IMG/VR virus record: IMGVR_UViG_3300012231_000011
Location: 1-60,277 of that record
DNA from: a virus
Lineage: Duplodnaviria > Caudoviricetes
Reading direction: 5' to 3' (one strand)
Length of the DNA: 60,277 bases
Shown here: piece after piece, positions 1,232-39,006 of the stretch
Numbering within the stretch: position 1 is the first letter of the stretch
Layout of the letters: every line of letters begins with the position of its first letter
Translations under genes and position numbers: made by a program
Notes under the pieces: generated by a model
What the model saw: only the letters and a program-made list of their open reading frames with translations
Databases searched by the model: none
What the model was told of the DNA's origin: nothing

Positions 1232-4183
1232 GTGGCTGATGATCCTGAGTACACGTACCTCTCGGAGGATTGCGAGAAGTGCCGCCTCTGCTTGCCGGTC
1301 CGCTCGGTCCTGATCCATCCGCGCGGCACGGACACTCCGACCGTACTGATCGTCGGTGAGGCGCCCGGGCGAGAAGAGGACAAGGTCGGCAAGCCGTTCG
1401 TCGGACCGTCCGGCAAGATGCTGGAGGAGGTCCTCGCGGAGGCCGGCATCCCGCTCTCGGAGTGCCGCATCACCAATGCGGTCCGCTGCTTCCCGATGGA
1501 CGACGACGGAGCCGGTCGCCCTCCAGAGAAGGATGAGGCTGCGGCTTGCCGTGGCTACCTGATCGAAGAGATCAAGCACGTCCGCCCGAAGATCATCGTC
1601 GGGATGGGAAAGATCGCAGCGACGGCGATCACGGGCTCGAAGACGCTCAAGCCGGTGCGTGGACTTCGAGTCGACGCGGTCATCGACGAGGCGGAGGGTT
1701 ACACGGTTCCGACTGTGTGTACCTTCCATCCTGCGTACTACCTGCGCAGCAAGAACCCGGAGATCCGCGGCGCGATCATCAATGACCTGAAGTACGCGCG
1801 TGCGATCTATGAGCCGGACTCGATCGAGCACCGCACGACCCACTACAAGCTCATCGACACGATTGCACGGCTGCGCGGGCTCGTCGACAAGCTGCTCCGC
1901 CTGTGGAAGGCGGACGAGCTCCAGCTCGGTGCGATCGGTGTCGACGTGGAGAGTGCCGGCGGCCGAGGCGAGAAGACGAAGACCGGAAAGGTGACCGGCA
2001 AGAAAGTGGTGCCGATCGGCGCCTCGATGTTCGATCCTGAGTCGCGGCTGATCTCGCTGCAGCTGGCCTGGGCGCGTGGCCGCGCCGCCCTGATCCCGAT
2101 CAATCACCTTGGGTACACGGACCACGAGTTCTCGTCTCCGGCCGGCGCAGCGGTTCTGCAGCAGGAGCTCAAGCGGCTGCTGGAGTCGGGCATCCCGCTC
2201 GCAGGCTCGAATTTCTCCTTCGACTACAAGTACATCCTGACGAAGCTCGGGATCCGGCCGCTCAACATCGTGTTCGACGCGATGCATGCGAATCACTGCT
2301 GCTACGGCGGTGCGAACCCGAGCAACCTCGACTACATGGCGACGGCCTACCTCGGCTTCCCTCCGTACAAGCGGGAGATCAAGGCGCAGATCGAGGCCGG
2401 CAAGATCGAGGCGGTCCCGATCCAGGAGCTGGTCGACTACGGCTGCGGGGACTCGGATGCGACACTGCAGCTGAAGCCCATCCTGCTCGACGAGCTCGAT
2501 CGTGTCGGGCGGCGCAGGGTCTATGACCGCCTCTACCTCCGCTCTCAGCGCGTGTCGCTGACGGAGATGGAGATCAACGGCGTACAGGTCGACCCGAAGC
2601 GCCTGCAGAAGCTCGACCCGTACTACTCCGACCGCATGCTGGATGCGCAGCTGCGTGTCCGCCAGTCACCGCAGCATGCGACCTGGAGCCGCCTGAACAA
2701 GAAGAAGAACACGCGCCTCACGCTGCGCGGCAAGCCCATCCCGAATGCGCCTGAGTACATCTACCCGGACCTCAAGTTGGGGTCTTGGCAGGACGTTCAG
2801 TCGATGATGTACGACGTGTTCGAGTTCCCGGACCGGGATGCGCGTGGCAAGGAAGATCGCAGCACAGACGCGGATCACGTCCGTGACCATGGGCTCCGCT
2901 GCTTCGAGAGCAACAACGAAGAGGCACTCGACTTCCTGCGGGACCTGCTGACCTACCGCAACGCTCAGAAGCGTCGGTCGAGTTACGTGCGCAAGCTGCT
3001 GCACGAGACACCGAATCAAGGCGCCACCTCGACGAGTCCGTTCATCGAGCCTGGGCATCCGGAGTGGGTAGCTCACCCGACCTACAACCAAGCACGCGTC
3101 GTTACTGGACGCCTGTCTGCGTCGGATCCTCCGATCCAGACGATCCCGCGGCACTCTCCGATCCGCGGCGCGTTCGTGTCCCGATACAAGAGTGGGCTGA
3201 TCTTGAAGGGCGACTTCTCCCAAATGGAGCTTCGGGTGCTGGCCTGCCTTGCCGCAGACGAGCGCCTGATCGCCGTACTTGGTGGGAAGGACGAACGCTT
3301 CAAGCAGTTCAAGGGTGACCTTCACCTGTACACAGCCTCGGTGATCTACAAGAAGAAGCCAGAGGATGTGCACGAGGATGAACGCCATCGCGCGAAGAGC
3401 GTGAGTTTCGGAATCATCTACGGACGTGGCCCTGAGGCGATCGCCTTGGAGACCGGCATGACGGTCGAGGAGGCGAAGGCGCTGATCGACCTCTACTTCG
3501 AAACCTTCCCCAAGGTCAAGGCGTGGGTCGAGGCCATGCACGAGCAGGTACACACGGAAGGTCTCATCACGGGACCGACCGGCCGCCTGTACGTGATTCC
3601 AGAGGGCAAGCTGTCGAACAGCGGGCGCCGTCTCTCATTCGAGGATGAGAAGAAGGTCGCCAAAGCAGAACGACTGTCGGTGAACTACCCCATCCAGGGA
3701 AGCGCATCCGACATCGCATTGGAGTCGCTCAATCGGATCTCGTTGGCGTTCCGCAAGCGGAGCATGAAGACGCTGCCGTTTACGTTCGTCCACGACTCGA
3801 TCGAGTGCGACACCGTGCCTGCAGAACTGTTCGATGCCTATCGCATTCTGCGGGACAAGATGCTGGGTGGCCATGGCGACTTGTTCACTTGGCTGACTGT
3901 TCCACTGAAGGTGGAGTTCGAGCTCGGCGCTGATTGGGAGAAAACCATGAAGTGCGAGTTCGATGGGAACATCTTGAAGCTCTCGGGCAACGGGAAGTTC
4001 TATCCACCAATCCGCAATCGTCTGTCTACACACTTCGCATTGGGCGAAGAGTCACTCACGAGTCATGGGATCAAGTCGGAGACCTCGACGACCGGGCCGC
4101 GCCTCTCGTTGGAAGACATCGAGGAGCGGCCGGCGTACGAGAAGGTCTCTGTGACCCTCGAACTGTTGGAGGAGAGCGAATGA
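1232..4183 (+). CDS. polA: Family A DNA polymerase with N-terminal family-4 uracil-DNA glycosylase and 3'-5' exonuclease domains (SPO1-type architecture)
   Basis: UDG: CEKC, IVGEAPGREED..GKPFVGPSG, TFHPAYYLR; exonuclease: VDVES, NFSFD, YGCGDSDAT; PolA: TGRLSASDP, DFSQMELRVLA, RHRAKSVSFGIIYG, NYPIQGSASD, VHDSI. Confidence 0.95.
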   Translation: MADDPEYTYLSEDCEKCRLCLPVRSVLIHPRGTDTPTVLIVGEAPGREEDKVGKPFVGPSGKMLEEVLAEAGIPLSECRITNAVRCFPMDDDGAGRPPEKDEAAACRGYLIEEIKHVRPKIIVGMGKIAATAITGSKTLKPVRGLRVDAVIDEAEGYTVPTVCTFHPAYYLRSKNPEIRGAIINDLKYARAIYEPDSIEHRTTHYKLIDTIARLRGLVDKLLRLWKADELQLGAIGVDVESAGGRGEKTKTGKVTGKKVVPIGASMFDPESRLISLQLAWARGRAALIPINHLGYTDHEFSSPAGAAVLQQELKRLLESGIPLAGSNFSFDYKYILTKLGIRPLNIVFDAMHANHCCYGGANPSNLDYMATAYLGFPPYKREIKAQIEAGKIEAVPIQELVDYGCGDSDATLQLKPILLDELDRVGRRRVYDRLYLRSQRVSLTEMEINGVQVDPKRLQKLDPYYSDRMLDAQLRVRQSPQHATWSRLNKKKNTRLTLRGKPIPNAPEYIYPDLKLGSWQDVQSMMYDVFEFPDRDARGKEDRSTDADHVRDHGLRCFESNNEEALDFLRDLLTYRNAQKRRSSYVRKLLHETPNQGATSTSPFIEPGHPEWVAHPTYNQARVVTGRLSASDPPIQTIPRHSPIRGAFVSRYKSGLILKGDFSQMELRVLACLAADERLIAVLGGKDERFKQFKGDLHLYTASVIYKKKPEDVHEDERHRAKSVSFGIIYGRGPEAIALETGMTVEEAKALIDLYFETFPKVKAWVEAMHEQVHTEGLITGPTGRLYVIPEGKLSNSGRRLSFEDEKKVAKAERLSVNYPIQGSASDIALESLNRISLAFRKRSMKTLPFTFVHDSIECDTVPAELFDAYRILRDKMLGGHGDLFTWLTVPLKVEFELGADWEKTMKCEFDGNILKLSGNGKFYPPIRNRLSTHFALGEESLTSHGIKSETSTTGPRLSLEDIEERPAYEKVSVTLELLEESE

Positions 4184-4752
4184 GCAAGAAGGAGAACGGG
4201 ACCGCAACTGAGGTCGAGCTGAGCCGGGACATGCAGTACGTGATGGATCAGATCACGGCGCCGGCACTCAACGAGGCCCAGGGCAATGCAGTCCCTGTCC
4301 TTCGGGAAGAGGACCGCAAGGCCTTGCGTCGTGGTGTGCTGCTGCTGAATCGTGCCCTGCCGTCGGGCGACCCGGAGAAGCCGGACTTCGCGAAGGAGAT
4401 GCACAAGACCTACACGGTCTATGCCGAGATCGCGGCGGTGCACGGTCGTCTTCGTGCAGCGGCGTCGAGCTTCGAGGAGAGCAAGAAGACGGTCAAGGCA
4501 GAGGTCGGACTCGCCGTACGCAACGAGCTCGCGTCGGCGCAGGCGGTCAATCCGACCGAGAAGGTCACCGAGAAGCGGATCGAGGAACTGACCGACGCCA
4601 ATCCACGCATCAAGTCGTTCCTGGTCGACCTCGGCAAGTACGAGACGGTCGCCGAGATTGCGTACGGACTGCGCGAGTCGCTCCGCATGCGCTTCTCCAT
4701 GTTGGAGCATCGCAGCAACGACGAGCGGGCCCAGTTCAAGGTTGGAGGCTGA
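4180..4752 (+). CDS. UvsY-like recombination mediator / coiled-coil protein
   Basis: Helical protein with KVTEKRIEELTDANP; lies between polymerase and SSB/RecA; ATGA overlap with polA. Confidence 0.5.
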   Translation: MSKKENGTATEVELSRDMQYVMDQITAPALNEAQGNAVPVLREEDRKALRRGVLLLNRALPSGDPEKPDFAKEMHKTYTVYAEIAAVHGRLRAAASSFEESKKTVKAEVGLAVRNELASAQAVNPTEKVTEKRIEELTDANPRIKSFLVDLGKYETVAEIAYGLRESLRMRFSMLEHRSNDERAQFKVGG

Positions 4753-4755
4753 TCC

Positions 4756-6072
4756 ATGGCACGCGATGAGGAAGAGGGTGCAGCCGCAAAGGTGCTGCGT
4801 CCTGGCAAGGTAGATCGCAAGTGGGTGAAGAAGCAGAACAAGGAGGCCGGCGATCGGGAGAAGGACCGCAAGAAGGGCTTCTTCTCCTACAAGAACTTCG
4901 ACGAGCCGCAGGCAACGTATCGCATCCTGCCGCCTCCGGAAGGGCAGGGCGCCGCGTTCGTTCTCGTGCGCAAGCACTTCGCGATGTACCCGAACACGGG
5001 CAAGGCGATCGTCGATGACCTCAAGGTAGTGATGTGTCTCGACCAGATCGGCACGGACGAGATGCGCTGCCCGGTCTGCAAGTACCTTGACGAGGTGATC
5101 GATCCGTCGGATCGCAAGAACATGCTGAACCGCGTCAAGGCGGATCGTCCGCAGGCGATGTTCAATGCGATCATCCGCGCCTCGAAGGAGAGCGGTCGCA
5201 AGGACGACGAGCAGTGCATCCTCCAGACCAACGACCTGTTCGCGGACTGGTACTCGCAGCAGCTCGGGCTGGCGATGGAGGATGGTGTCGACCTCACGGA
5301 CCTGGATGAGGGCCGTGACATCGTCGTCGTGCAGAAGAGCACGACGGGTCGGGACGGCAAGACGCGCAAGAAGTACGAACCGAGCATCAAGCCTGTGGCG
5401 TCGGTGGCGACGGACAATCCCTCCGAGCTCCGGCTGTCGGACCTGACGAAGTACCTGGAAGTGTCCGATGAGGATGTCGCGCGCGCCAAGCAGCTCGCGC
5501 GTGGTCTGCGCCGTCGCGCTGAAGAGCGTGAGGATGCGGCGCGTGAGGAAGAGGATGAGCGTCCGGCCAAGAGCCGTGCGGCGCCTCGGTCCACCGATGA
5601 GGACGATCCGGAGAACGAGGAGACGCCGCCGCCTGTGAAGAAGGCGAAGGCTGCGCCGGTGGATGAAGAGGAAGCGGGAGACGAGGACGACGACACGCCT
5701 CCACCTCCGAAGAAGAAGGCCACCAAGCCTGAGCCGGACGAGGATGAAGAGGCGGAGGACGACGACACTCCCCCGCCGGCTAAGAAGAAGCCGATCAAGA
5801 CGGCAGCGGACGCCATCGAGGCGGACGACGAGGAGACGGAGAAGCCACGTGGGTGGCGCCAGACCTCGTCGGGCAAGGTGCTGCCGCCCAAGCCGACGGA
5901 GGAGACGGGCAAGCCGGTCTGCTTCCACGATTGGGTGAAGCGCGGCAACGATCCGGCGGAGGATGAGTCGAGCAACGCTCAGTGCTCGATCTGTCCGCAG
6001 GAGACGACCTGCCGCTTCGAGTCTCAGAAGCGCGCCGCGAAGAAGGCGGTGAAGGCCACGGAAGAAGAGTAG
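4756..6072 (+). CDS. Single-stranded DNA-binding protein (gp32-like) with long acidic tail
   Basis: YRILPP, KHF, C..CPVC and DLTDLDEGRDIVV motifs; D/E/K/P-rich tail and a C-terminal Cys cluster; next to RecA. Confidence 0.7.
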   Translation: MARDEEEGAAAKVLRPGKVDRKWVKKQNKEAGDREKDRKKGFFSYKNFDEPQATYRILPPPEGQGAAFVLVRKHFAMYPNTGKAIVDDLKVVMCLDQIGTDEMRCPVCKYLDEVIDPSDRKNMLNRVKADRPQAMFNAIIRASKESGRKDDEQCILQTNDLFADWYSQQLGLAMEDGVDLTDLDEGRDIVVVQKSTTGRDGKTRKKYEPSIKPVASVATDNPSELRLSDLTKYLEVSDEDVARAKQLARGLRRRAEEREDAAREEEDERPAKSRAAPRSTDEDDPENEETPPPVKKAKAAPVDEEEAGDEDDDTPPPPKKKATKPEPDEDEEAEDDDTPPPAKKKPIKTAADAIEADDEETEKPRGWRQTSSGKVLPPKPTEETGKPVCFHDWVKRGNDPAEDESSNAQCSICPQETTCRFESQKRAAKKAVKATEEE

Positions 6073-15715: not shown

Positions 15716-17668
15716 ATGGCTACGAAGATCGAGCGGTTTGCTACGCGTGTACTCGACGAGTTGGGTGACGATTACCGAAAGACATACGAGTCCCTGCCGT
15801 TTGAGGAGCAGAAGCTCGTCCGTCGAGTCCTGCGGGAGTGGCGCAAGCGCGGCGACTCGCCGACGCTCGATGCGCTCTGGTCGCTCGACTACGAACGCAG
15901 GCCGCCAACGATCGAGGAGTTCCTGAACGATCCGCAGTACCTGCACAAGGATGTGTCCGCTGCCATCTTTCCTGTGTGGCGCAAGGACCTCCTCGAAGTG
16001 TTCGCGCCGCACAAGCAGATCAACGACTGGGTGATGACTGGGTGCATTGGTGGTGGCAAGACGAATACGTCGGCGCTCGCCATCTGCTACATCCTCGCGC
16101 GCCTGCTCTGCCTGCGCAGCCCGCAGAAGTTCTACAGCCTCGATCCGAATCAGCTGATCGCATTCGGTCTGTTCGCGCCGCTGAAGCTGAAGGTCGAAAC
16201 GACCAGTTTCGCTGCGGTGGCGAGCAAGATGCTGGACAGCCCGTTCTTCACGAAGGTGTACCCGCGCGATCCGGACTTCACTACGACGATCCGCCTTCCG
16301 AAGAACATCCGTCTCGTTACGGGATCGAGTGACATCCACGCGCTCGGCGAGTCTATCTTCGTGGTCGCGATCGACGAGGCGGACTTCATGAAGGTCGGGG
16401 CCACGGCCGAGGAGCGTGGTCAGGCCTACAAGATTCATGATGCTACTCATCGCCGCATGGTGTCGCGCTTCCTGAAGGATGGCCGCCTCCCCGGCATGAG
16501 CTTCCTCATCTCGTCGAAGCGTGCGAAGGACGACTACGTCGAGCAATTCATCGAGCAGAACCGGACCAATGGTCACGTCAAGGTTTCTGACTTCGCGCTT
16601 TGGGATGTGAAGCCTGACGATTACTCCAAGCGCACCTTCTCAGTCATGGTGGGTGACCAGACGCACGCGTCGCGCATCATCACCGAGGATGATGCTGTGC
16701 CTGTTCCGGCGGATCAGCGTGCTCCTCCTGGTTTCGACGTGATCCATCCACCGATCGACTTCCTGCCAGACTTCAAGCGTTCATTGGAGGACTCCATCCG
16801 CGACATCGGCGGCCACGAAGTGTGGGGCGCGTCGAAGTTCATCAGTGATCGTGAGGGAATGATCGCGTGCGTCGATCCTGATCGGCAGCATCCGTTCTCT
16901 CGCGAAGAGATCACCATCGACATCAAGACGGATGTGACGATCGAGGACTTCCTGCTTCATTCGAAGATCTTCGAGACGAAGCTGTCGAAGCGGCGCCTGC
17001 GTGTCCGTCCCGAAGAGGGCCGGTTCATTCACGGAGACCTCGCGGTGTCTGGCGACTGTGCCGGACTCGCGATGGGTCATGCCGGTCCTCCGATCGAGAT
17101 CGTGCGGCGCAACCAGGACGGGGCAGCTTACAACGTGCTGGTGCCTGTTGTGTACATCGACTTCATGGTTCGCATCCGGCCTCCGGTTGGAAGCCAGATC
17201 GAGCTTGGGAAGATCCGGCAGTTCATTGCGATGCTGACTGCGTACGGAGTGCAGATCAAGAAGATCACCTTCGACGGTTGGGGCAGCGTCGACATGATTC
17301 AGATCCTGCAGAAGCAGGGCTATGAGTCAGATGTCCTGTCGGTGGACAAGGATGAAAAGGCGTACTCGTCGTTGCGTCAGGCTGCCTTCGAGCGGCGACT
17401 CTCGTTCTATGAGTACAAGCCGTACATCAAGGAAGTCCTGGATCTCTTCCAGGACCCGAAGACCCGCAAGGTCGACCATCCACTCAAGGGCAGCAAGGAT
17501 GTGTCGGACGCGGTTGCAGGTGTCTGCTGGAATGTGATGGTGGAGGAGGAAGTGCTGCGCGCGGCCCCGAAGCCGAAGAAGGTCGACCCGCGCAAGCCGG
17601 AGCCACAGCCAGACGACATCGGTTGGCTGCTCGATCGCAACTCTAGGCGTATCGTGGGGATTGGCTAA
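15716..17668 (+). CDS. terL: Terminase large subunit
   Basis: Walker A GCIGGGKT, Walker B VAIDEAD, LISS; nuclease HGDLAVSGDCAG, ITFDGW, KVDHP..GSKDVSDAVAG; precedes portal. Confidence 0.9.
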   Translation: MATKIERFATRVLDELGDDYRKTYESLPFEEQKLVRRVLREWRKRGDSPTLDALWSLDYERRPPTIEEFLNDPQYLHKDVSAAIFPVWRKDLLEVFAPHKQINDWVMTGCIGGGKTNTSALAICYILARLLCLRSPQKFYSLDPNQLIAFGLFAPLKLKVETTSFAAVASKMLDSPFFTKVYPRDPDFTTTIRLPKNIRLVTGSSDIHALGESIFVVAIDEADFMKVGATAEERGQAYKIHDATHRRMVSRFLKDGRLPGMSFLISSKRAKDDYVEQFIEQNRTNGHVKVSDFALWDVKPDDYSKRTFSVMVGDQTHASRIITEDDAVPVPADQRAPPGFDVIHPPIDFLPDFKRSLEDSIRDIGGHEVWGASKFISDREGMIACVDPDRQHPFSREEITIDIKTDVTIEDFLLHSKIFETKLSKRRLRVRPEEGRFIHGDLAVSGDCAGLAMGHAGPPIEIVRRNQDGAAYNVLVPVVYIDFMVRIRPPVGSQIELGKIRQFIAMLTAYGVQIKKITFDGWGSVDMIQILQKQGYESDVLSVDKDEKAYSSLRQAAFERRLSFYEYKPYIKEVLDLFQDPKTRKVDHPLKGSKDVSDAVAGVCWNVMVEEEVLRAAPKPKKVDPRKPEPQPDDIGWLLDRNSRRIVGIG

Positions 17669-20600
17669 TGCCTTCCAACTCTGTACCGGTCGTAGATGCG
17701 AGTCCTGAGTACATCCGCGGTCTCAGCCCCGAGCAGCGTGACTTGCTGCTCGGGCGCAAGGCCATGTTGGAGGGCGACTACTTCTCCGAGCGCATCTTCG
17801 GAGAGCCGTCCTCCTACCTGCCGACGCGGCGCGCGCTGCGTTCTCTCTTCGGTCAAGACGGAGAGGCGACGCCCGAGCCACCATTCGATATGGGCCCGGA
17901 GCAGATGTTCGGTCGGACCTACTCGTGGTACGACTCGCAGCTCCAGTTCGAGAACTCCCGCGGGGCTGTCTATCGGCTCGTGCAGGAGATGGCGCAGTAC
18001 GGCCTCATCTCTTGCTTCACCGGCGACACGAAAGTATCCCTCCTCGACGGCCGAGAGGTCTCGCTGGCGGATCTTTCTGTCGAGTATGGAGACGGCTCTC
18101 CGTTTTGGGTGTATTCGTACGATCGGTCGAAGGGGTGCATGGCGCCGGGATTGGCGCACTCCCCACGGCGTACCGGTAAGTCGGTGCCCGTGTACAAGGT
18201 CACCCTGGATAATGGGGAGAGCGTACGCTGTACGCCCGAGCATCTCTGGTTGCTCCGGACTGGGGAGTACTGTCGAGCTGCACAACTCACCCCAGGCACG
18301 AGCTTGATGCCTTTGTATCGCAAGACTGATCCACACGGCTACGAGAAGCACTGCGTCGGAGATCGGTGGTATTGGACGCACGTCCACGTGACGCGCCAGA
18401 TGGTTGGAGCGTATGCACCTGACTTGGTGGTTCACCACAAGTCGTTCGACAAGCTGAATAATGCTCCGGACCAACTGCAACTCTTGACCTCGTCGGAGCA
18501 CAGCTCTTTGCACGGGAGGGTTGCGTCCGGTGTGATGCGGAGACTCTGGCAGGATCCGAAGTTTCGGAAGAAGACGCGACACGTTCAACGTGCGAACATG
18601 ATTCACTTGAACGAACGCCTCTGGAAGGATCCCGCATTCCGCGCTCGGCAGCAAAAGCGTGCGGCTCGGCACGCCCGTGCCTTGATGCGCGAGCTTTGGG
18701 CTACGCCTGAGTGGCGGAGCAAGCGGTTGAGCGTGATGCGCAGCCCGGAGAGCAAGGCGAAGTCTGGCGATCGGCTCCGTATGCTTTGGAAGGATCGGGA
18801 CTTCGCTGACAAGGTCAAGGCGATTGCTCGCATCAACGTGAAGCACATGAATGCTGTGCGCGTACCGCGGCGAGGCCAGCAGCATGAGCGGTACATTTCT
18901 GGGGTTACGGTGGAGACGGTTTCCGCCGTCATCCGAGAGGGAATCCACGCCCAGATCGATGTAGCCCGGGCTCTTGGTTGTTCAACGCTTACCCTCCAGC
19001 GTCGGCTTCGTGGGTTCGGTACGACGTTTAGTGCGCTGACTAAGAAGCTGACCGGCTTGGATGGTCACCAGCGACATATGCGCTCACTTCAGGCGCGTGG
19101 CTTGGCGCATGTGAACCACAAGGTCGTCTCTGTCGAGCTGGACGGCGTTGCTGATGTGTACGACTTGACTGTCAGCAAGCACCACAACTTCGCACTCAGT
19201 GCTGGGGTGTTTGTACACAACTCTGTGCTCGATGCCTACGCCGAGGATGCGACTCAGTTCGACTACGACAAGGGTCGCGTCTTCTGGATCGAGTCTGACA
19301 ACCGTGAGATCCGCGACGAACTCACGCGCATGATTGACCGCGTACAGCTGGAGGATCGTGCCTTCTCGATGGCGCGCGGCCTCGCTCTGTTCGGGGATCA
19401 CTTCGAGCAGCTGGTGTACAGCCAGGGCGAGGGCGTCCTGGCGCTGCGCTATGTGCATCCGAGCCGCCTCACGCGCATCGAGGACAAGTACGGCAAGCTG
19501 CGCGGATTCGCGGTGGGCCTCTACGAGGACTCCGAGCTCACCGAGGAGAAGATCGAGAAGCTCAAGCTCTCCCACCCGTACGAGTTCCTCCACTTCCGTC
19601 GTCTCGGCTCGCGGCGCTTCGGTGCGCACGGCGAGTCGATGATCCTCGGCGCACGCCGCAGCTGGATGCAGCTCAAGATCATGGAAGATTCCATGATTCT
19701 CTACCGGCTCAATCGAGCTCCGGATCGTCTCGTGTGGTACATCGACGTGGGCACGCAGGGTCCAGACGACCAGCGCCGCACGATCGAGTACTGGCGGCAG
19801 GCGTACCGCAAGCGCATGTACCTGAATACTGGCACCGGCATCCTGCGCCAGGAGTGGTCGCCTCTGACGGCTGAGGAGGATCTGTTCTTCCCGGTCCCGA
19901 AGGGCACCAACTCGCGCATCGAGAAGCTGCCGGGCTGCTTCACTGGAGACACGAAGATCAAGTTGTTGTCTGGGAAGAGCGCCACGTTGGAGGATCTTGC
20001 GTCGTCCGCTTCAAAGGCGGAGTTCTACGTCTACTCCTGTGACTCTCGTGGGCATATCGTGCCTGGACGTGGACACTCGCCACGGATCACTAAGTCGGTA
20101 ACCGACCTTGTCGACGTGACGTTGGACAACGGCGAGACCGTACGCTGCACGCCTGATCATCGTTGGATGCTGCGGGATGGTACGTACTGTGTCGCGGCTG
20201 AGCTGACGGCTGGGGCGTCATTGATGCCGCTCTACACCCGCGACAACCGCCACGAGAAACTCGAAGGCTATGAGCAGGTCTACGATCCTGGCTTTGATCG
20301 TTGGCGGTTCACGCATCGAGTTGTTGGTACCTGGAAGTACGGTGACAAGTACACCGGAAATCAGCATGGCGCGGGCATTATCCACCATGCTGGCCGTACT
20401 TCGTCGGGGGCGTTCGACAAGAAGAACAACGACCCGGCCAACTTGATGCTGATGCCGAAGCAGGCGCATCTCGATCTGCATATTGCTGCCGCTAGCGACT
20501 GGCGGGATAGCCACCCCGAAGAGGCCGCCCGCATTCTGTCTCGGGCGCAGGCGGCAAGCGTGACGGTGGAGGCGCGTCAGCGGAAGTCACAGGCTCTCCG

Positions 20601-22227
20601 TCAGAAGTTCGCCTCGGACCCGGCGTACGCATCTCGGCTTCGTCGTCGAGCACTTCGCAATTGCCGGAAGAATGGTGCGACCGGTCTGCTGGGGTACAAT
20701 GGCAGTGAGCAGCATTTGGCGAAGTTGGTTGAAATGAACTCGTCCGACAAGTATGCCGGGTATCGTGCTAACCGTAGCGCTGCGGCGGTGCGTAATGGTA
20801 AGAAGTTCGGCGCGAGAAACTTCGCCGACTACAACGAGAGTGGTAAGCATAGTGCGGCGGTGAGCGGGGATAAGAGCGGGCGGTGGCGTGGGGAGGTTAC
20901 CGTAGCGGATGTACTAGCTGCTGCTCCATTGGTGTCTGGGGTCTATGCCCTCGCTCGCCGACTGCGGTGCGGCTACAACGCGGTTGTGACTCGTCTGCGC
21001 ATGGCCGGATTGTCACCGCGCACGGCAGGCGTGAAGTTTGGATGGCGGCAGGCCGGTTGTGGGGGGCGTCCGCGGAAGAAGGCTCTCAACCACAAGGTCG
21101 TGTCCGTTGTCTGTGTACATCTGGAACAGCCTGTTCCGGTGTACGACATCACGGTAGAAGACACGCACAACTTCGCGCTTGCTGCTGGCGTGTTTGTTCA
21201 CAATTCCGCGAACGTCGGGGACATCCACGACGTGGAGTACGCAGTCAACAAGCTGGCGGGCGACCTGCGTGTACCCAAGGCGTTCTTCGGGTTCGAGGGT
21301 GATCTCAACTCGAAGTCCTCCCTGCTCGCGCAGGACATTCGCTACGCACGCACGGAGAAGACACTGCAGCGCGCCGTGCGTTACGGCGTCACACAGCTCT
21401 GCCGGATCCACCTCGCACTCCGCGGCATGAATCCGAAGATGAACAAGAACAAGTTCACGGTGTGCATGTCGCCGATCTCGTATCTCGACGAGATGCAGCG
21501 CGCGGAGCTCTTCAACTCGCGTGTCGAGCTGGCGGGACAGATGCTCGGTCTCGCGAACGAAGAGTTCTCGAAGGGTGACTGGACGCGCTTCGTCCTCGAA
21601 GACTTCCTCCGGCTCACGAAGCAGCAGACTGCGCGCTTCGTGCCTTGGAAGGAGCCGCAGGATCCGAATGCGGCCATGCCGGGTGGGGGAATGGACATGG
21701 GCGCAGGCGGACCGCCGGTTCCTGGTGGGGCTCCTCCGATGGGAGACGCTCCGACCCTCCCTCCTGGAGATGGTCCTGCGGTCTCGCGGGATCAGGCATT
21801 CGCGAATCCGGATCTTGGGACGATGGGCCCTCCGGACACGGGAATGCCGGAGCCCGGCGTCGACAACACGCTGGATCTCATGGCGAGCAGGAATCGTGCG
21901 CCGGACTCTCTCGCTTCGTTTGTGGACGCGCCGCGGATGCAGGAGCACATCGAGATCTCGGAGCGCGAGGGGTCGCTGCCTGATCGCGCCACGCTGGCTC
22001 CGGGCGAGTTGATCTTCGACTTGGCGCGTGAGGAGTCTGCCTATGCGAGCACCGTCAAGCCGCAGAATGCGGATGATGTTGTCGCCGAGTTCGCCAAGAA
22101 CCACCGTACGCAGGAAGGTCGTCCGTGCCCTGCGCCTCGTGCCAAGCGTATGGCTCGCGGGGGGCATGAGTACATCCTCTGCGAGGGGTGCAACATGATC
22201 GCGGAGCTCGAACGTGGAGTCGCGTGA
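17668..22227 (+). CDS. Portal protein (T4 gp20-like) containing two inteins; about 693 aa after splicing
   Basis: Exteins: [53 protein letters not shown]..KL...LRVPK, QDIRYAR; Pro/Gly-rich C-terminal tail. Confidence 0.92.
   Translation: [1519 protein letters not shown]
18013..19221 (+). mobile_element. Intein 1 (403 aa) with HNH endonuclease domain
   Basis: N-terminus CFTGDTKV, block B [26 protein letters not shown], C-terminus [22 protein letters not shown] followed by +1 Ser. Confidence 0.93.
19936..21204 (+). mobile_element. Intein 2 (423 aa) with HNH endonuclease domain
   Basis: N-terminus CFTGDTKI, block B RCTPDH, HNH IIHH...[10 protein letters not shown], C-terminus [22 protein letters not shown] followed by +1 Ser. 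Confidence 0.93.
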
Positions 22228-34956: not shown

Positions 34957-35184
34957 ATGGTGGGATGTTGCCGCTGCGGCTTTGGAGCCCCAGCGATCGA
35001 GCATGACTACCGTGTCCGCGTTGTCCTGGTGGAAGATCCGCAGACGAAGAAGAGCAAGAAGATCATCCAGCAGATCTGCCTCGATACGGTGGCCTGCCGC
35101 AAGCGCCAATCACAGGCCCTTGCAGAACAAGCGGAACGTGAGTACAAGAAGAGGTCTCGGCGTCCACGAGAGGACGAAGAGTAG
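34957..35184 (+). CDS. Small Cys-containing hypothetical protein
   Basis: SD GGAGG; CCRC motif. Confidence 0.55.
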   Translation: MVGCCRCGFGAPAIEHDYRVRVVLVEDPQTKKSKKIIQQICLDTVACRKRQSQALAEQAEREYKKRSRRPREDEE

Positions 35185-35196
35185 GAGGGGAGAGAC

Positions 35197-35403
35197 ATGC
35201 CTGACGACGAGAGTGGCAAGAAGATCGAAGTCCAACTGACGGACTTTTCCAGCGATCACCTACGTCTCGTGGCGCTCAAGGAGCAGGAGGCGGGCAAGCT
35301 CTTCCGCTGCGGCTGGATATGCGTCACGATCATTGTCTTCATGCTCTGCTCGACCTGCGCAGCGGTCGAGATCTGGGGGCAGCCGCAGCAGGTGCAGAGG
35401 TGA
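35197..35403 (+). CDS. Small membrane protein
   Basis: SD GGAGG; hydrophobic C-terminal helix. Confidence 0.55.
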   Translation: MPDDESGKKIEVQLTDFSSDHLRLVALKEQEAGKLFRCGWICVTIIVFMLCSTCAAVEIWGQPQQVQR

Positions 35404-35606
35404 ACGAGCTCTGCCGCGTCGTGTTCGAGAGCATCGAGAAGCGCGTGCTCGAAGCGAAGCGCTCGGGGTGGAAGTGCGGCGACGTGAAGTGCAAGTGTCC
35501 GTGCGGAGTGATGCACGGCGTGTCGTGGGGGGAGGCGCTCGACTGGATGTCCGCCGCCTACCACGAAGAGCTCAAGGCGGAGTTGTCGGAGGAGGGGGCC
35601 CCGTGA
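35400..35606 (+). CDS. Small hypothetical protein (CPCG motif)
   Basis: GTGA overlaps at both ends. Confidence 0.55.
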   Translation: MNELCRVVFESIEKRVLEAKRSGWKCGDVKCKCPCGVMHGVSWGEALDWMSAAYHEELKAELSEEGAP

Positions 35607-35852
35607 AGTTCAGGATCCGCATCTCGCTCGATGTCGTCGTCCTCCTGGTCCTTCTCGTGCTGGCCGTGTGCTTCTGCACAGGTCCAGCTACGGATAAGGA
35701 CCCCAGGAAGGGAGACGAGCAGAAGTCCAAGTGAGTACTCACACTGTGTACTCATGATCTCACTGGCGGTGGGATCCCTGGACTCAAGGTGGTGTCCAGG
35801 TAGGGTGCACGAAGTCGCACCGGTCAGTACCTGAGGGAGGAGGAAAGTCGTC

Positions 35853-36638
35853 ATGATCTTGGAGGAGGTCTCAGCGATCCTGAACAGGCGTCCTGCGTGC
35901 ATGACCGAGGATGAGATCATGCTGCTACTCAGCAGGATCAAGTGGGGGACGAAGGGACGCATCGGCACCTTCTTCTTAGCTCGCAGCTCGTTGTTCTGCG
36001 CCGTGCCGGTGATCTGCGTCGAGTCCGGAGCGGAGGTGATGGCGCAGGGCTGCGTAGGCGTTCCGTCCGGTGGATGGAAGAGCCCGCAGCAGGTGATCGA
36101 GGCGGTGACGCTGCTCTCGCTCTCGGCGCAGGCCCACGAGACCACGGAGAACCTGCGCATCGATGGTCAGCCAGTCTTCGAGCCACACCACGAAGGACAC
36201 GCGGACGGGATCCGACAGCTCGACTACCTGCTCAACTTCGCGGCCCCAGCTCGGGAGTACCCACTTCTGGTAGAGGGGTCGAATCGGCCTGCCACCAAGA
36301 AGCATGAGATCCTGAACAGCGATCCTCGTCAGCCGCTGCTGTGGAAGGATCCGCCCAAGATCATGGTGGTGCCTCCGGAAGAGTTCAAGGTCAAGGGCAG
36401 CTCCTTCTACGACGAGGGGAAGGAGCTGCTCAAGAAGTTGACGAAGAGCCGGTTCGAGGATGTGCTCGCTTCGGCGTTCGGCCTGCCAGCACCGACCCGC
36501 CAGATTCCTGAGTACGTGGTGGCGAAAGAGAAAGAGAAGCTCTCGGTCCGGCCGAAGAGGAACGAGGAACTGAGGAACCTGCGCGACTTCCTGCATCGTC
36601 GGGATCGCAAGTCGCCGCAGTGGGGGAGAGCATCATGA
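35853..36638 (+). CDS. Hypothetical protein
   Basis: Strong SD GGAGGAGG; ATGA overlap with next gene. Confidence 0.65.
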   Translation: MILEEVSAILNRRPACMTEDEIMLLLSRIKWGTKGRIGTFFLARSSLFCAVPVICVESGAEVMAQGCVGVPSGGWKSPQQVIEAVTLLSLSAQAHETTENLRIDGQPVFEPHHEGHADGIRQLDYLLNFAAPAREYPLLVEGSNRPATKKHEILNSDPRQPLLWKDPPKIMVVPPEEFKVKGSSFYDEGKELLKKLTKSRFEDVLASAFGLPAPTRQIPEYVVAKEKEKLSVRPKRNEELRNLRDFLHRRDRKSPQWGRAS

Positions 36639-36976
36639 ACTCGAAGCGGTATCAGAGGGTCCTGCTCAAGTGCTTCAACGCACTGGACAAGAGGAAGCGA
36701 GCTCGGCTCCGCTGGCACGCAAAGCAGAAGACGCCGATCTGCTGTCAATGGGACGCCTACAGATTCGTGATGGACGACAATGCGGGCTGACCCGCGATCT
36801 TGGCCGTCACCCGTGTGGTGACGGAGGTTGAGTACTGCCGGAAGCTGAACGAGGTCCACAACACGGTCGCGCGCATGGATGCAGAGGTCCAGAATGGCTA
36901 CCTTGGGTATATCGATGCGCTCGTCGACTGTGACGAGAAGACCGTCCGTAGGGTGATGGCAAAGGTGAAGCCGTGA
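36635..36976 (+). CDS. Candidate selenoprotein (in-frame TGA at 36788-36790), 113 aa, paralog of 50277-50675
   Basis: ATGA overlap upstream and GTGA overlap downstream; TGA aligns with Cys of the paralog (DNAG*PAILA vs DGCGCPAQLA); SECIS-like hairpin follows. Confidence 0.65.
36795..36830 (+). promoter_or_regulatory. Bacterial SECIS-like stem-loop
   Basis: Upper stem CCGTCACC/GGTGACGG, loop CGTGT starting 21 nt after the UGA, lower stem CGATCT/AGGTTG with a 5' TGG bulge. Confidence 0.55.
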
Positions 36977-37287
36977 GTCGACGTGGGAAGAGTAGGCGCG
37001 CACTCATCGATGCGTTCCTCAAGAAGTGCGTGGAGGTTCACCGAGCAGAACGAGACGTGCGCACCTACTGGGTGCCAGCAGAGCCGTTCCAGCGTCCGGT
37101 CTGGTGCGTCCTGCGAGATGGGAAGTTCCTGGAGGACGCCAACGGCTTCCCCAAGGTCTGCGCGATGTTGGCTGAGGCTAGAGGCTTCGCCTTCTACGGC
37201 CTCGATGCGAAGGAGAAGCGACGACACAAGGTCGTCGAGATGCACGAGACGCTCGAACCGAGAGAGTCGAGGAGGAGGAAGAGGTGA
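36973..37287 (+). CDS. Hypothetical protein
   Basis: GTGA overlaps at both ends. Confidence 0.6.
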   Translation: MSRRGKSRRALIDAFLKKCVEVHRAERDVRTYWVPAEPFQRPVWCVLRDGKFLEDANGFPKVCAMLAEARGFAFYGLDAKEKRRHKVVEMHETLEPRESRRRKR

Positions 37288-37646
37288 GTACGCTCGAAGA
37301 GAAGAAGAAGGCGTTGGAGTGGCTCGACGGAGCTGCGACGTGTCGGCAGCGCGACATCGCTCGCGAAGCTCTCCGTCGCGAGGTCGCAGCTGAGGAGCTG
37401 GCTACGAGGGCGGTGAGGAAGCCGACGCTGGGTCTGCTCGCACGCAGTGCCGGTGACTGCCGGGATGGGCACTCTGCTCGGGCTCTGTCTCCAGGCGGTA
37501 GGAGCGACCATGATCGGATTGCTGCGATCCTGCTCGCGCTCGAAAAGGCGGCGCCCTTGATCAAGAGGTGGCACGTCGAGGCGCGCCACTACGTCAACGA
37601 GTGCAGCGAGCTCGCACACGCCATCGCTGCCGAGGTGGATCTCTAG
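37284..37646 (+). CDS. Hypothetical protein
   Basis: SD and GTGA overlap. Confidence 0.6.
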   Translation: MSTLEEKKKALEWLDGAATCRQRDIAREALRREVAAEELATRAVRKPTLGLLARSAGDCRDGHSARALSPGGRSDHDRIAAILLALEKAAPLIKRWHVEARHYVNECSELAHAIAAEVDL

Positions 37647-37788
37647 CTGTGAGTGAGGACAAGCCGCTTCTGTTTCGCTGGTGGTTCTGGGTGCTCATGA
37701 TCGTCGTCAACACCGCGTTCCTCTGGCTCGTCCTGTTCGTCGCCCTTCCCGCGCTCATCCGCGTGTGCAAGGCCGCGTGGAACAACCC

Positions 37789-38145
37789 ATGAGCGATGAG
37801 ATCGATCCGACGAGGGCCGCGAAGCTACTCAAGTCCTGCTCCGACGGCGATACGATCTGCAGGAGCATCCAGCACTATCCGGTGGCCGCCGCTGCGATCA
37901 GCGGCTTCTACCTCATGGATCAGCACGGCAAGTCGTATCCTGTTTCGATCGACGCGATGGACGCACGTGAGAGTGGTGGTCCGAGCATCGACGAGAAGAT
38001 CAAGCGGGCGAAGGTCGATGCTGCGTGCACGAAGATCGCCACCGAGCTGCTAGCTGCTGCTGAGGTGCGGGGCCTGCGTCGAGCTGCTATGACTCGCGAC
38101 CTCTGGCGCTGCTTCGCTGAGCGTCAGTGCCCGCGTGGGGGCTGA
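37789..38145 (+). CDS. Hypothetical protein
   Basis: ATGA overlap with an upstream small membrane ORF (37649-37792). Confidence 0.55.
   Translation: MSDEIDPTRAAKLLKSCSDGDTICRSIQHYPVAAAAISGFYLMDQHGKSYPVSIDAMDARESGGPSIDEKIKRAKVDAACTKIATELLAAAEVRGLRRAAMTRDLWRCFAERQCPRGG
37888..37914 (+). repeat. 27-bp direct repeat, copy 1
   Basis: GCCGCTGCGATCAGCGGCTTCTACCTC, identical to 38980-39006. Confidence 0.9.
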
Positions 38146-38154
38146 GTAGCCACG
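38134..38154 (+). repeat. 21-bp pseudo-palindromic motif CGTRG-N2-GSTGAGT-N2-CYAYG
   Basis: CGTGG GG GCTGAGT AG CCACG; other copies at 38355, 43923 and 47961. Confidence 0.7.
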
Positions 38155-38183
38155 ATCCGAAGTCGTTCGAGAACGAGAAGGTT

Positions 38184-38259
38184 GGGTGTGTAGCTCAGCT
38201 GGGAGAGCTCCTGCTTTGCAAGCAGGGGGTCGCAGGTTCGATCCCTGTCACATCCACCA
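38184..38259 (+). tRNA. tRNA-Ala(TGC)
   Basis: Canonical cloverleaf, G3:U70, anticodon arm CCTGC-TTTGCAA-GCAGG, GGTTCGATCC, encoded CCA. Confidence 0.96.
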
Positions 38260-38262
38260 ACT

Positions 38263-38347
38263 GGAGGAGTCGATCAACGGTAGATCACCGCCTTGCTAAG
38301 GCGGCGGGGTAACACCTGTGCAGGTTCAACTCCTGTCTCCTCCGCCA
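38263..38347 (+). tRNA. tRNA-Ser(GCT)
   Basis: GGAGGAG/CTCCTCC acceptor, G73, CCGCC-TTGCTAA-GGCGG anticodon arm, long variable arm, CCA. Confidence 0.92.
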
Positions 38348-38354
38348 ATGCGCG

Positions 38355-38375
38355 CGTGGACGCTGAGTAACCATG
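38355..38375 (+). repeat. 21-bp pseudo-palindromic motif copy
   Basis: CGTGG AC GCTGAGT AA CCATG. Confidence 0.65.
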
Positions 38376-38513
38376 ATGCATTCTACGTGTAGGCGTGGTC
38401 CACGAGAGATACGCCGCGCGCCAAAGCCCACGTGGGGGCCTGATCACTCACGAGAAGCGCCGGTCAAGCCGCTCGTGACCACGACGAGGTCCGCCAGTCC
38501 GAGGAGGGAGGCG

Positions 38514-38879
38514 ATGAACTACGACGAGTATGTGCGACCCGGGTTGACCTACGACGAGTTCACGAAGGCGAACGTCGAACGCTGCTGCGGGGCTGCGTGG
38601 TCCAAGGACCCGAACGACGCGGCGAACTGGTCACTCAACGACTGGATGGTCGCCCTCGCAGGTGAAGTCGGTGAGGCCGCGAACCTCCTGAAGAAGCTCC
38701 GTCGCGGAGACTTCACGCTGGAGGAGGTCCGGCCTGACCTTGCACGTGAGCTCGCCGACGTGTACACGTACCTGGATCTGATCTGCCACAAGGCAGGGAT
38801 CCACCTACCGACCGCGGTGGTGGAGAAGTGGAACGAGGTCAGCGTCAAGGTCGGATGGCCGAAGCGGTTGAAGGCCTGA
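38514..38879 (+). CDS. mazG: MazG-like nucleotide pyrophosphohydrolase
   Basis: ALAGEVGEAANLLKK...LARELADV (ExxE..ExxD). Confidence 0.9.
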   Translation: MNYDEYVRPGLTYDEFTKANVERCCGAAWSKDPNDAANWSLNDWMVALAGEVGEAANLLKKLRRGDFTLEEVRPDLARELADVYTYLDLICHKAGIHLPTAVVEKWNEVSVKVGWPKRLKA

Positions 38880-38979
38880 CGCTGTCGCGATGCAGGTACC
38901 GGCGATCATCACGCCCGAAGTCGCAGCGTTCCGCTCGCTGATGGGCAAGTAGGAGCGACTCATGAGTCCTGGTGAGCAG

Positions 38980-39006
38980 GCCGCTGCGATCAGCGGCTTC
39001 TACCTC
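38980..39006 (+). repeat. 27-bp direct repeat, copy 2
   Basis: Identical to 37888-37914. Confidence 0.9.

Follow-up and report, generated by a model that had tools for sequence, protein, structure and literature searches.

The locus described here raises the question of whether a bacterial virus can carry the gene for a selenoprotein. It lies in IMG/VR virus record IMGVR_UViG_3300012231_000011 (Duplodnaviria; Caudoviricetes), the whole 60,277-base stretch of which was analyzed and is referred to as the window (G+C content 62%, estimated completeness 41%). An initial annotation, made from the sequence alone, had proposed that a gene missed by the open reading frame (ORF) track reads an in-frame TGA as selenocysteine (Sec), pointing at a cysteine in the same alignment column of a second, related gene in the window and at a downstream hairpin resembling a selenocysteine insertion sequence (SECIS). 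Decoding of Sec by UGA in combination with a SECIS is textbook knowledge for cells and known for a few animal viruses. The homolog and hairpin tests reported here support the proposed interpretation, and we conclude that positions 36635–36973 very probably encode a 113-residue selenoprotein representing a new phage-borne protein family. The elements in question are the following:

36635–36976, plus strand: candidate selenoprotein gene, 113 codons and a terminal TGA, with a match to the family profile and a one-domain AlphaFold2 model.

36788–36790, plus strand: in-frame UGA at codon 52, candidate selenocysteine codon (alignment column U/C52), followed by C (UGAC context, proline codon).

36795–36830, plus strand: SECIS-type stem-loop starting 7 nt after the UGA, with a free energy of -17.0 kcal/mol as a whole and -13.0 kcal/mol for its apical part.

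Parts of the stem-loop, plus strand: lower stem 36795–36800/36825–36830; bulge 36801–36803 (3 nt, UGG); upper stem 36804–36811/36817–36824.

36804–36824: apical hairpin CCGTCACC / CGTGT / GGTGACGG, 8 base pairs, with the loop CGUGU at 36812–36816, 21 nt after the UGA.

50277–50675, plus strand: Cys-containing paralog of 132 amino acids with TGC at the Sec column (50472–50474).

TGA 36788 is the only interruption of the 113-codon frame. The start codon, ATG 36635, is preceded by the Shine-Dalgarno-like tract GGGGGAGAG and forms an ATGA overlap with the TGA of the upstream ORF (35853–36638), while the terminal TGA at 36974–36976 forms a GTGA overlap with GTG 36973 of the next ORF, such that the read-through frame indeed fills the gap left in the ORF track. 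ORF calling with translation table 11 yields two pieces only, 36620–36790 and 36800–36976, with 56 and 58 amino acids, respectively. These pieces could be taken at face value, the TGA then having arisen by nonsense mutation or through faulty assembly, with the halves being small ORFs or the remains of a decaying gene. TTG 36800 would be a possible restart codon in this case, but a Shine-Dalgarno tract is not present in front of it. The TGA itself is identical in contigs from three freshwater-sediment DNA runs, which possibly share a sampling campaign with the window and are then perhaps not independent of the source assembly. Comparison with the paralog likewise points at a single reading frame. 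The 113-residue product aligns with the paralog ORF (50262–50672) at an E-value of 4e-11 with 30 of 60 residues identical, the alignment crosses the stop as had been stated initially, and the UGA column coincides with the Cys residue in the paralog's GCGCPAQLA motif. A profile built for the family matches 36635–36970 over profile positions 2–117 of 130 with one TGA inside (E = 2.5e-36), and it bridges a TGA not only here but also at seven places in five other phage records.

How widespread the TGA is in this column was assessed at the protein and at the DNA level. A search of 1.84 billion protein representatives returned 28 matches, including the two halves of the window's own gene (P0002 and P0003). 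Cys occupies the column in eight full-length library proteins (P0005, P0009, P0010, P0012, P0013, P0022, P0025 and P0026) and hence, together with the window paralog, in nine full-length relatives. Nine further library matches with lengths of 45–58 amino acids terminate just before the Sec column and one, P0019, comprises the C-terminal half, which is exactly the product expected from gene callers that encounter an in-frame UGA. Of five long library matches, the four examined (P0004, P0008, P0011 and P0016) turned out to be spurious matches to low-complexity repeats and were discarded. Searches of viral contigs for relatives of single proteins (P0001, P0005 and P0013) retrieved none, a word-index protein search gave no homolog and a search of the ESM Atlas with the Cys paralog gave no usable match.

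DNA was scanned with back-translated motifs that demanded H-x4-TP[IV]xCG and P-A after the column and accepted any third base in the codon of the column (TGN). Among viral contigs, all six matches to the first pattern have TGA, and the second pattern yielded ten matches, nine of which are family members (TGA in 9/9) and one a chance match. Metagenome contigs contributed 43 loci, 24 of them family members (21 with TGA and three with TGT) and 19 due to chance. After removal of duplicates, the window gene and 22 further TGA genes form a set of 23 distinct Sec-type genes that is opposed by two TGT genes (L021 and L053) and the Cys paralog of the window. Among members matching the DNA patterns, the family is mostly of the Sec type and Cys forms are fewer. 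The Sec-type genes are highly divergent, terminal branches in the phylogenetic tree being about one change per site long. Cys forms are scattered among Sec forms in this tree and the Cys paralog of the window is sister to a Sec form (support 99/80), the pattern to be expected if Sec and Cys replace each other within the family. One complete phage genome of 85 kb with terminal repeats (L004, identical with G001) even contains three Sec-type paralogs:

1803–2144: Sec-type paralog with its own UGA and hairpin.

4611–4982: Sec-type paralog with its own UGA and hairpin.

4998–5351: Sec-type paralog with its own UGA and hairpin.

All three are situated within 3.6 kb, the last two being adjacent with 15 nt between them and the remaining one lying about 2.5 kb upstream.

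The part downstream of the UGA is in frame in all 23 Sec-type genes and closes in a common C-terminus, Y..AL....VR.AI. Ratios of nonsynonymous to synonymous substitution rates (dN/dS) range from 0.24 to 0.69 after the UGA in eight of eight pairs, indicating purifying selection, and are similar before the UGA (0.11–0.88). AlphaFold2, provided with a 35-row alignment, places both halves in one helical domain with a predicted local distance difference test (pLDDT) score of 94.4 and a predicted template modeling (pTM) score of 0.88. The idea of a split or decaying gene might draw on the local folding of the RNA, as the minimum free energy of 71 nt around the site is unexceptional when taken alone (z = -1.10; equally stable folds in 31 of 200 shuffles). 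It is nevertheless already contradicted by the homolog survey, since the same TGA is present in 23 distinct and divergent genes, always in frame and followed by sequence under purifying selection; a one-off nonsense mutation or sequencing error is ruled against on the same grounds, and we regard explanations of this kind as highly improbable.

The significance of the hairpin rests on the comparison with homologs and not on a single fold. In a 2026 review, the bacterial SECIS consensus is described as an apical loop of 3–9 nt on a stem of 4–16 base pairs, with G among the first two nucleotides of the loop (N(0-1)G[G|U] in most cases), a distance of 16–37 nt from the UGA to the apical loop and a free energy of at most -7.5 kcal/mol (PMC13188914). 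The published criteria of bSECISearch were applied with our own scripts and energies were derived from our own constrained folds. The hairpin of the window was found where the initial annotation had placed it, with the bulged lower stem that had been described, and it lies within all four limits (8 base pairs, CGUGU, 21 nt, -17.0 kcal/mol). A hairpin of at least 4 base pairs is present in 23/23 Sec-type genes, with the loop starting at nt 21–26 (counting the U of UGA as 1) and a spacing of 17–22 nt. The loop conforms to N(0-1)G[G/U] in 22 of them, and the whole stem-loop reaches -7.5 kcal/mol or less in 18. As the loop G was a criterion of the search, background rates serve as the control: hairpins of at least 4 base pairs with such a loop occur at a background rate of 31.6%, and stems of at least 5 base pairs are found in 20/23 Sec-type genes versus 14.7% in the background of these loci (209,658 positions).

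Covariation had been named at the outset as a feature expected of a genuine signal, and the sequence of the hairpin does change between members while pairing is kept. When each gene was recoded synonymously 2,000 times, all 23 natural hairpins proved more stable than the mean of the recoded sequences and 14 did so at p < 0.05, among them that of the window (p = 0.0055). A gapless alignment has 65.8% of cells paired as compared to 32.6–42.4% with the partner strand slid, the covariation score amounts to 0.260 as compared to 0.068–0.154, and neither the pairing nor the covariation value was reached by any of 500 shuffles. Six genes encoding other peptides at this place form different stems (L006, L009, L010, L024, L028 and L031), and L033 and L034 specify the same AGRRIP peptide with different codons and retain pairing in both cases. 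No comparable hairpin follows the TGC of the window's Cys paralog, where just a 4-bp stem with a 7-nt loop can be drawn (-2.4 kcal/mol), and in two of the three Cys genes for which DNA is available the hairpin is absent or trivial.

Some uncultured phages recode stop codons, with TAG recoding in crAss-like phages as the subject of PMC9523058, and it could be asked whether TGA has been reassigned throughout the genomes of these phages or their hosts (as in genetic codes 4 or 25), in which case every TGA would be a sense codon. Such a reassignment is already contradicted by stop-codon usage. TGA terminates 52 of the 79 ORFs in a greedy map of the window and also serves as the terminal stop, at the aligned C-terminus, of 17 of the 23 Sec-type genes themselves. 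The tRNAs of the window comprise those for Ala, Ser and Pro as well as a tRNA-like element that lacks an anticodon loop, with no suppressor tRNA among them, and three related phage records, including the complete 85-kb genome with three Sec paralogs, do not yield any tRNA match. The G+C content of the window also speaks against this explanation, to which we assign the least probability of all those considered.

Shortly after the Cys paralog, two adjacent tRNA-like elements are located at 50925–51116. The second (51032–51113) scores 40.1 bits with the tRNA model and has an anticodon arm in the form of a rod (7 base pairs, a C-C mismatch, 3 base pairs) that is capped by GCAA. Both elements were considered as tRNA-Sec and rejected, as there is no tRNA-Sec match and the second lacks an anticodon loop. 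When the window was scanned for further in-frame TGAs between strongly coding stretches, one candidate came up at 57937 (within 57622–58620), flanked by regions with a G+C content at third codon positions of 0.96 and 0.92, which rather reads like two adjacent genes sharing one frame than like a Sec site.

Several observations weigh against the selenoprotein interpretation. The energy threshold of -7.5 kcal/mol is missed by five of the 23 Sec-type genes and nine are individually non-significant in the recoding control, while the combined probability according to Fisher (1e-12) overstates independence because the sequences are related. Most hairpins are built from the codons of a conserved peptide, T-R-x-V (CACC CGUGN GGUG). 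The strongest hairpin of all belongs to a Cys gene, L053 (13551–13769, TGT), with 10 base pairs, a GGUC loop and -18.3 kcal/mol at a distance of 18 nt from the codon; the hairpin is thus not exclusive to UGA genes, and in this case it may be a SECIS left over from a recent change from Sec to Cys. Among the full-length library relatives, two have Trp (P0007 and P0023) and one has Ala (P0029) at the Sec column, judging from which the residue may have a non-redox role or the UGA may be read through as Trp. As the DNA patterns demanded fixed motifs, the ratio of Sec to Cys forms is valid for the matching part of the family alone. Finally, five related phage records do not contain a tRNA-Sec scoring above the cut-off, and selB and selD are each absent from the window and four related records (0/5; selA was outside the search).

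Some of these points could also be accommodated by programmed read-through that does not involve selenium. A weak UGA-C stop assisted by a hairpin would then be decoded by a near-cognate tRNA for Trp or Cys and a mixture of products with 51 and 113 amino acids would result. UGAC is a weak terminator in Escherichia coli and C indeed follows the UGA in 23/23 Sec-type genes; Trp in two library homologs and the hairpin after the Cys codon of L053 also fit. The column is nevertheless taken by Cys in nine full-length relatives and by Trp in two, which is the pattern of a Sec/Cys family, and the hairpin has the spacing of a SECIS and a loop that opens with G[G/U] in all Sec-type genes except one. Moreover, the two Trp proteins, each a single-member cluster on one short contig, may be products of TGA translated under another code. 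We therefore consider read-through of this type unlikely, albeit less so than the other two alternatives, and keep to the interpretation of the gene as one for a selenoprotein.

Host SelB-dependent insertion of Sec is the most likely mechanism acting at the UGA. Given that tRNA-Sec, selB and selD were not found in the phage records, decoding must make use of host factors. During infection, the host's SelB-GTP-Sec-tRNA(Sec) complex would bind to the stem-loop, which starts 7 nt downstream of UGA 36788, and SelB would bring selenocysteine to the ribosome at this codon, after which translation would proceed to the true stop at 36974. Where SelB or selenium is lacking, termination by release factor 2 would leave a product of 51 residues. 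We infer both that the UGA is read by SelB and that the residue inserted is Sec.

The protein itself could not be assigned to any family described, in agreement with the first impression that it was not recognizable. None of the 35 members matches Pfam or PHROGs at E ≤ 0.01, NCBIfam gives just four single-member matches at chance level and the best match by sequence in the PDB has an E-value of 1. Comparison of the predicted fold with known structures resulted in no Foldseek match at E ≤ 0.001 and in a best Z-score of 3.5 with VIA-align. His28, Thr33 and Cys37 are invariant columns, and the Sec/Cys52-Pro-Ala motif is nearly so. The AlphaFold2 model has residue 52 directly before a predicted helix (residues 53–58), i.e. 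at its N-terminus. It is conceivable from model and alignment that Sec52 and the invariant Cys37, perhaps together with His28, form a redox center (selenenylsulfide) or a metal-binding center. Taking the broader view, we lean slightly toward a selenoprotein family confined to bacterial viruses, with its own fold and with Sec as the usual and Cys as the occasional residue, that would be kept by diverse phages in up to three tandem copies because the Cys37/Sec52 redox or metal center confers an advantage in infection. Should this apply, phage fitness would be tied to the selenium supply and the SelB system of the host.

The same DNA pattern, applied to prokaryotes with one genome for each of 185,579 species, did not reveal a single family member. 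All eight matches were due to chance, so that neither a prophage copy nor a host was found. The DNA polymerase of the window does not provide a clue to the host either, because it shares at most 27% identity with those of Bacillus and other phages in tblastn comparisons, and blastn of 35000–39000 against cultured phages returned tRNA matches only. Neighboring genes are not conserved between the loci, with the exception of the related pair L003/L005, and a function can thus not be derived from gene context.

Some further features of the window and of related contigs are recorded here. The polymerase, encoded at 1232–4183, is a DNA polymerase A with an N-terminally fused uracil-DNA glycosylase domain (UDG-PolA fusion), and a T4-like portal gene at 17668–22227 is broken up by intein and HNH modules. 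A 162-nt contig, X6, from a sediment metatranscriptome library spans 36874–37013 and thereby the end of the candidate selenoprotein gene and the start of the next gene. It differs from the window at six positions and represents a related strain; although it comes from an RNA library it may represent DNA carry-over and is not evidence for expression. X6 and another contig, X2, have five differences at 36895–36911, which lie 22–51 nt from the contig ends. L024 is situated at 11–703 on a metagenome contig of 1.1 kb, where its frame continues upstream without a stop into the C-terminal portion of an ABC transporter ATPase with LSGGQRQR and Walker B motifs that were recognized by eye. This arrangement could stem from a chimeric assembly or from the sequence having inserted into a bacterial gene.

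If our interpretation is correct, it has several consequences. Gene callers would systematically split such phage genes, the halves of which are contained in the protein library. Phages would exploit SelB, and the gene would then be a host-range marker for Sec-using bacteria. The small new fold with its invariant set of His, Cys and Sec would furthermore be a target in the search for a new selenium-dependent activity. We did not find a report of a phage-encoded selenoprotein in the literature, although supplementary lists of metagenomic selenoprotein families may hold some. The words phage, virus and viral are absent from the 2026 review of the prokaryotic selenoproteome (PMC13188914).

Three known systems invite comparison. 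Stop-recoded uncultured phages, in which TAG or TGA is affected genome-wide, have in common with the present case that a codon normally used as a stop is translated within a phage gene. Here, in contrast, a local RNA signal would redefine one codon per gene, TGA stays the main stop and no suppressor tRNA was found. Among animal viruses, selenoproteins are represented by the glutathione peroxidase homologs of molluscum contagiosum and fowlpox viruses. The feature shared with these (see also PMC8310308) is that host machinery for Sec insertion is borrowed for a viral gene. They rely on a eukaryotic SECIS in the 3'-untranslated region and on a captured host enzyme, whereas the family described here has a bacterial-type signal within the ORF and no cellular relative was found for it. 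A third parallel is provided by bacterial selenoprotein genes with a SECIS inside the ORF that is read by SelB, with Escherichia coli fdhF as the prototype. A UGA at a Cys column and a stem-loop in the coding sequence just downstream are common to both. The genes differ from their bacterial counterparts in that they are phage-borne and not cellular, in that the encoded protein matches neither a described selenoprotein nor any other family or fold, and in that Sec forms outnumber Cys forms.

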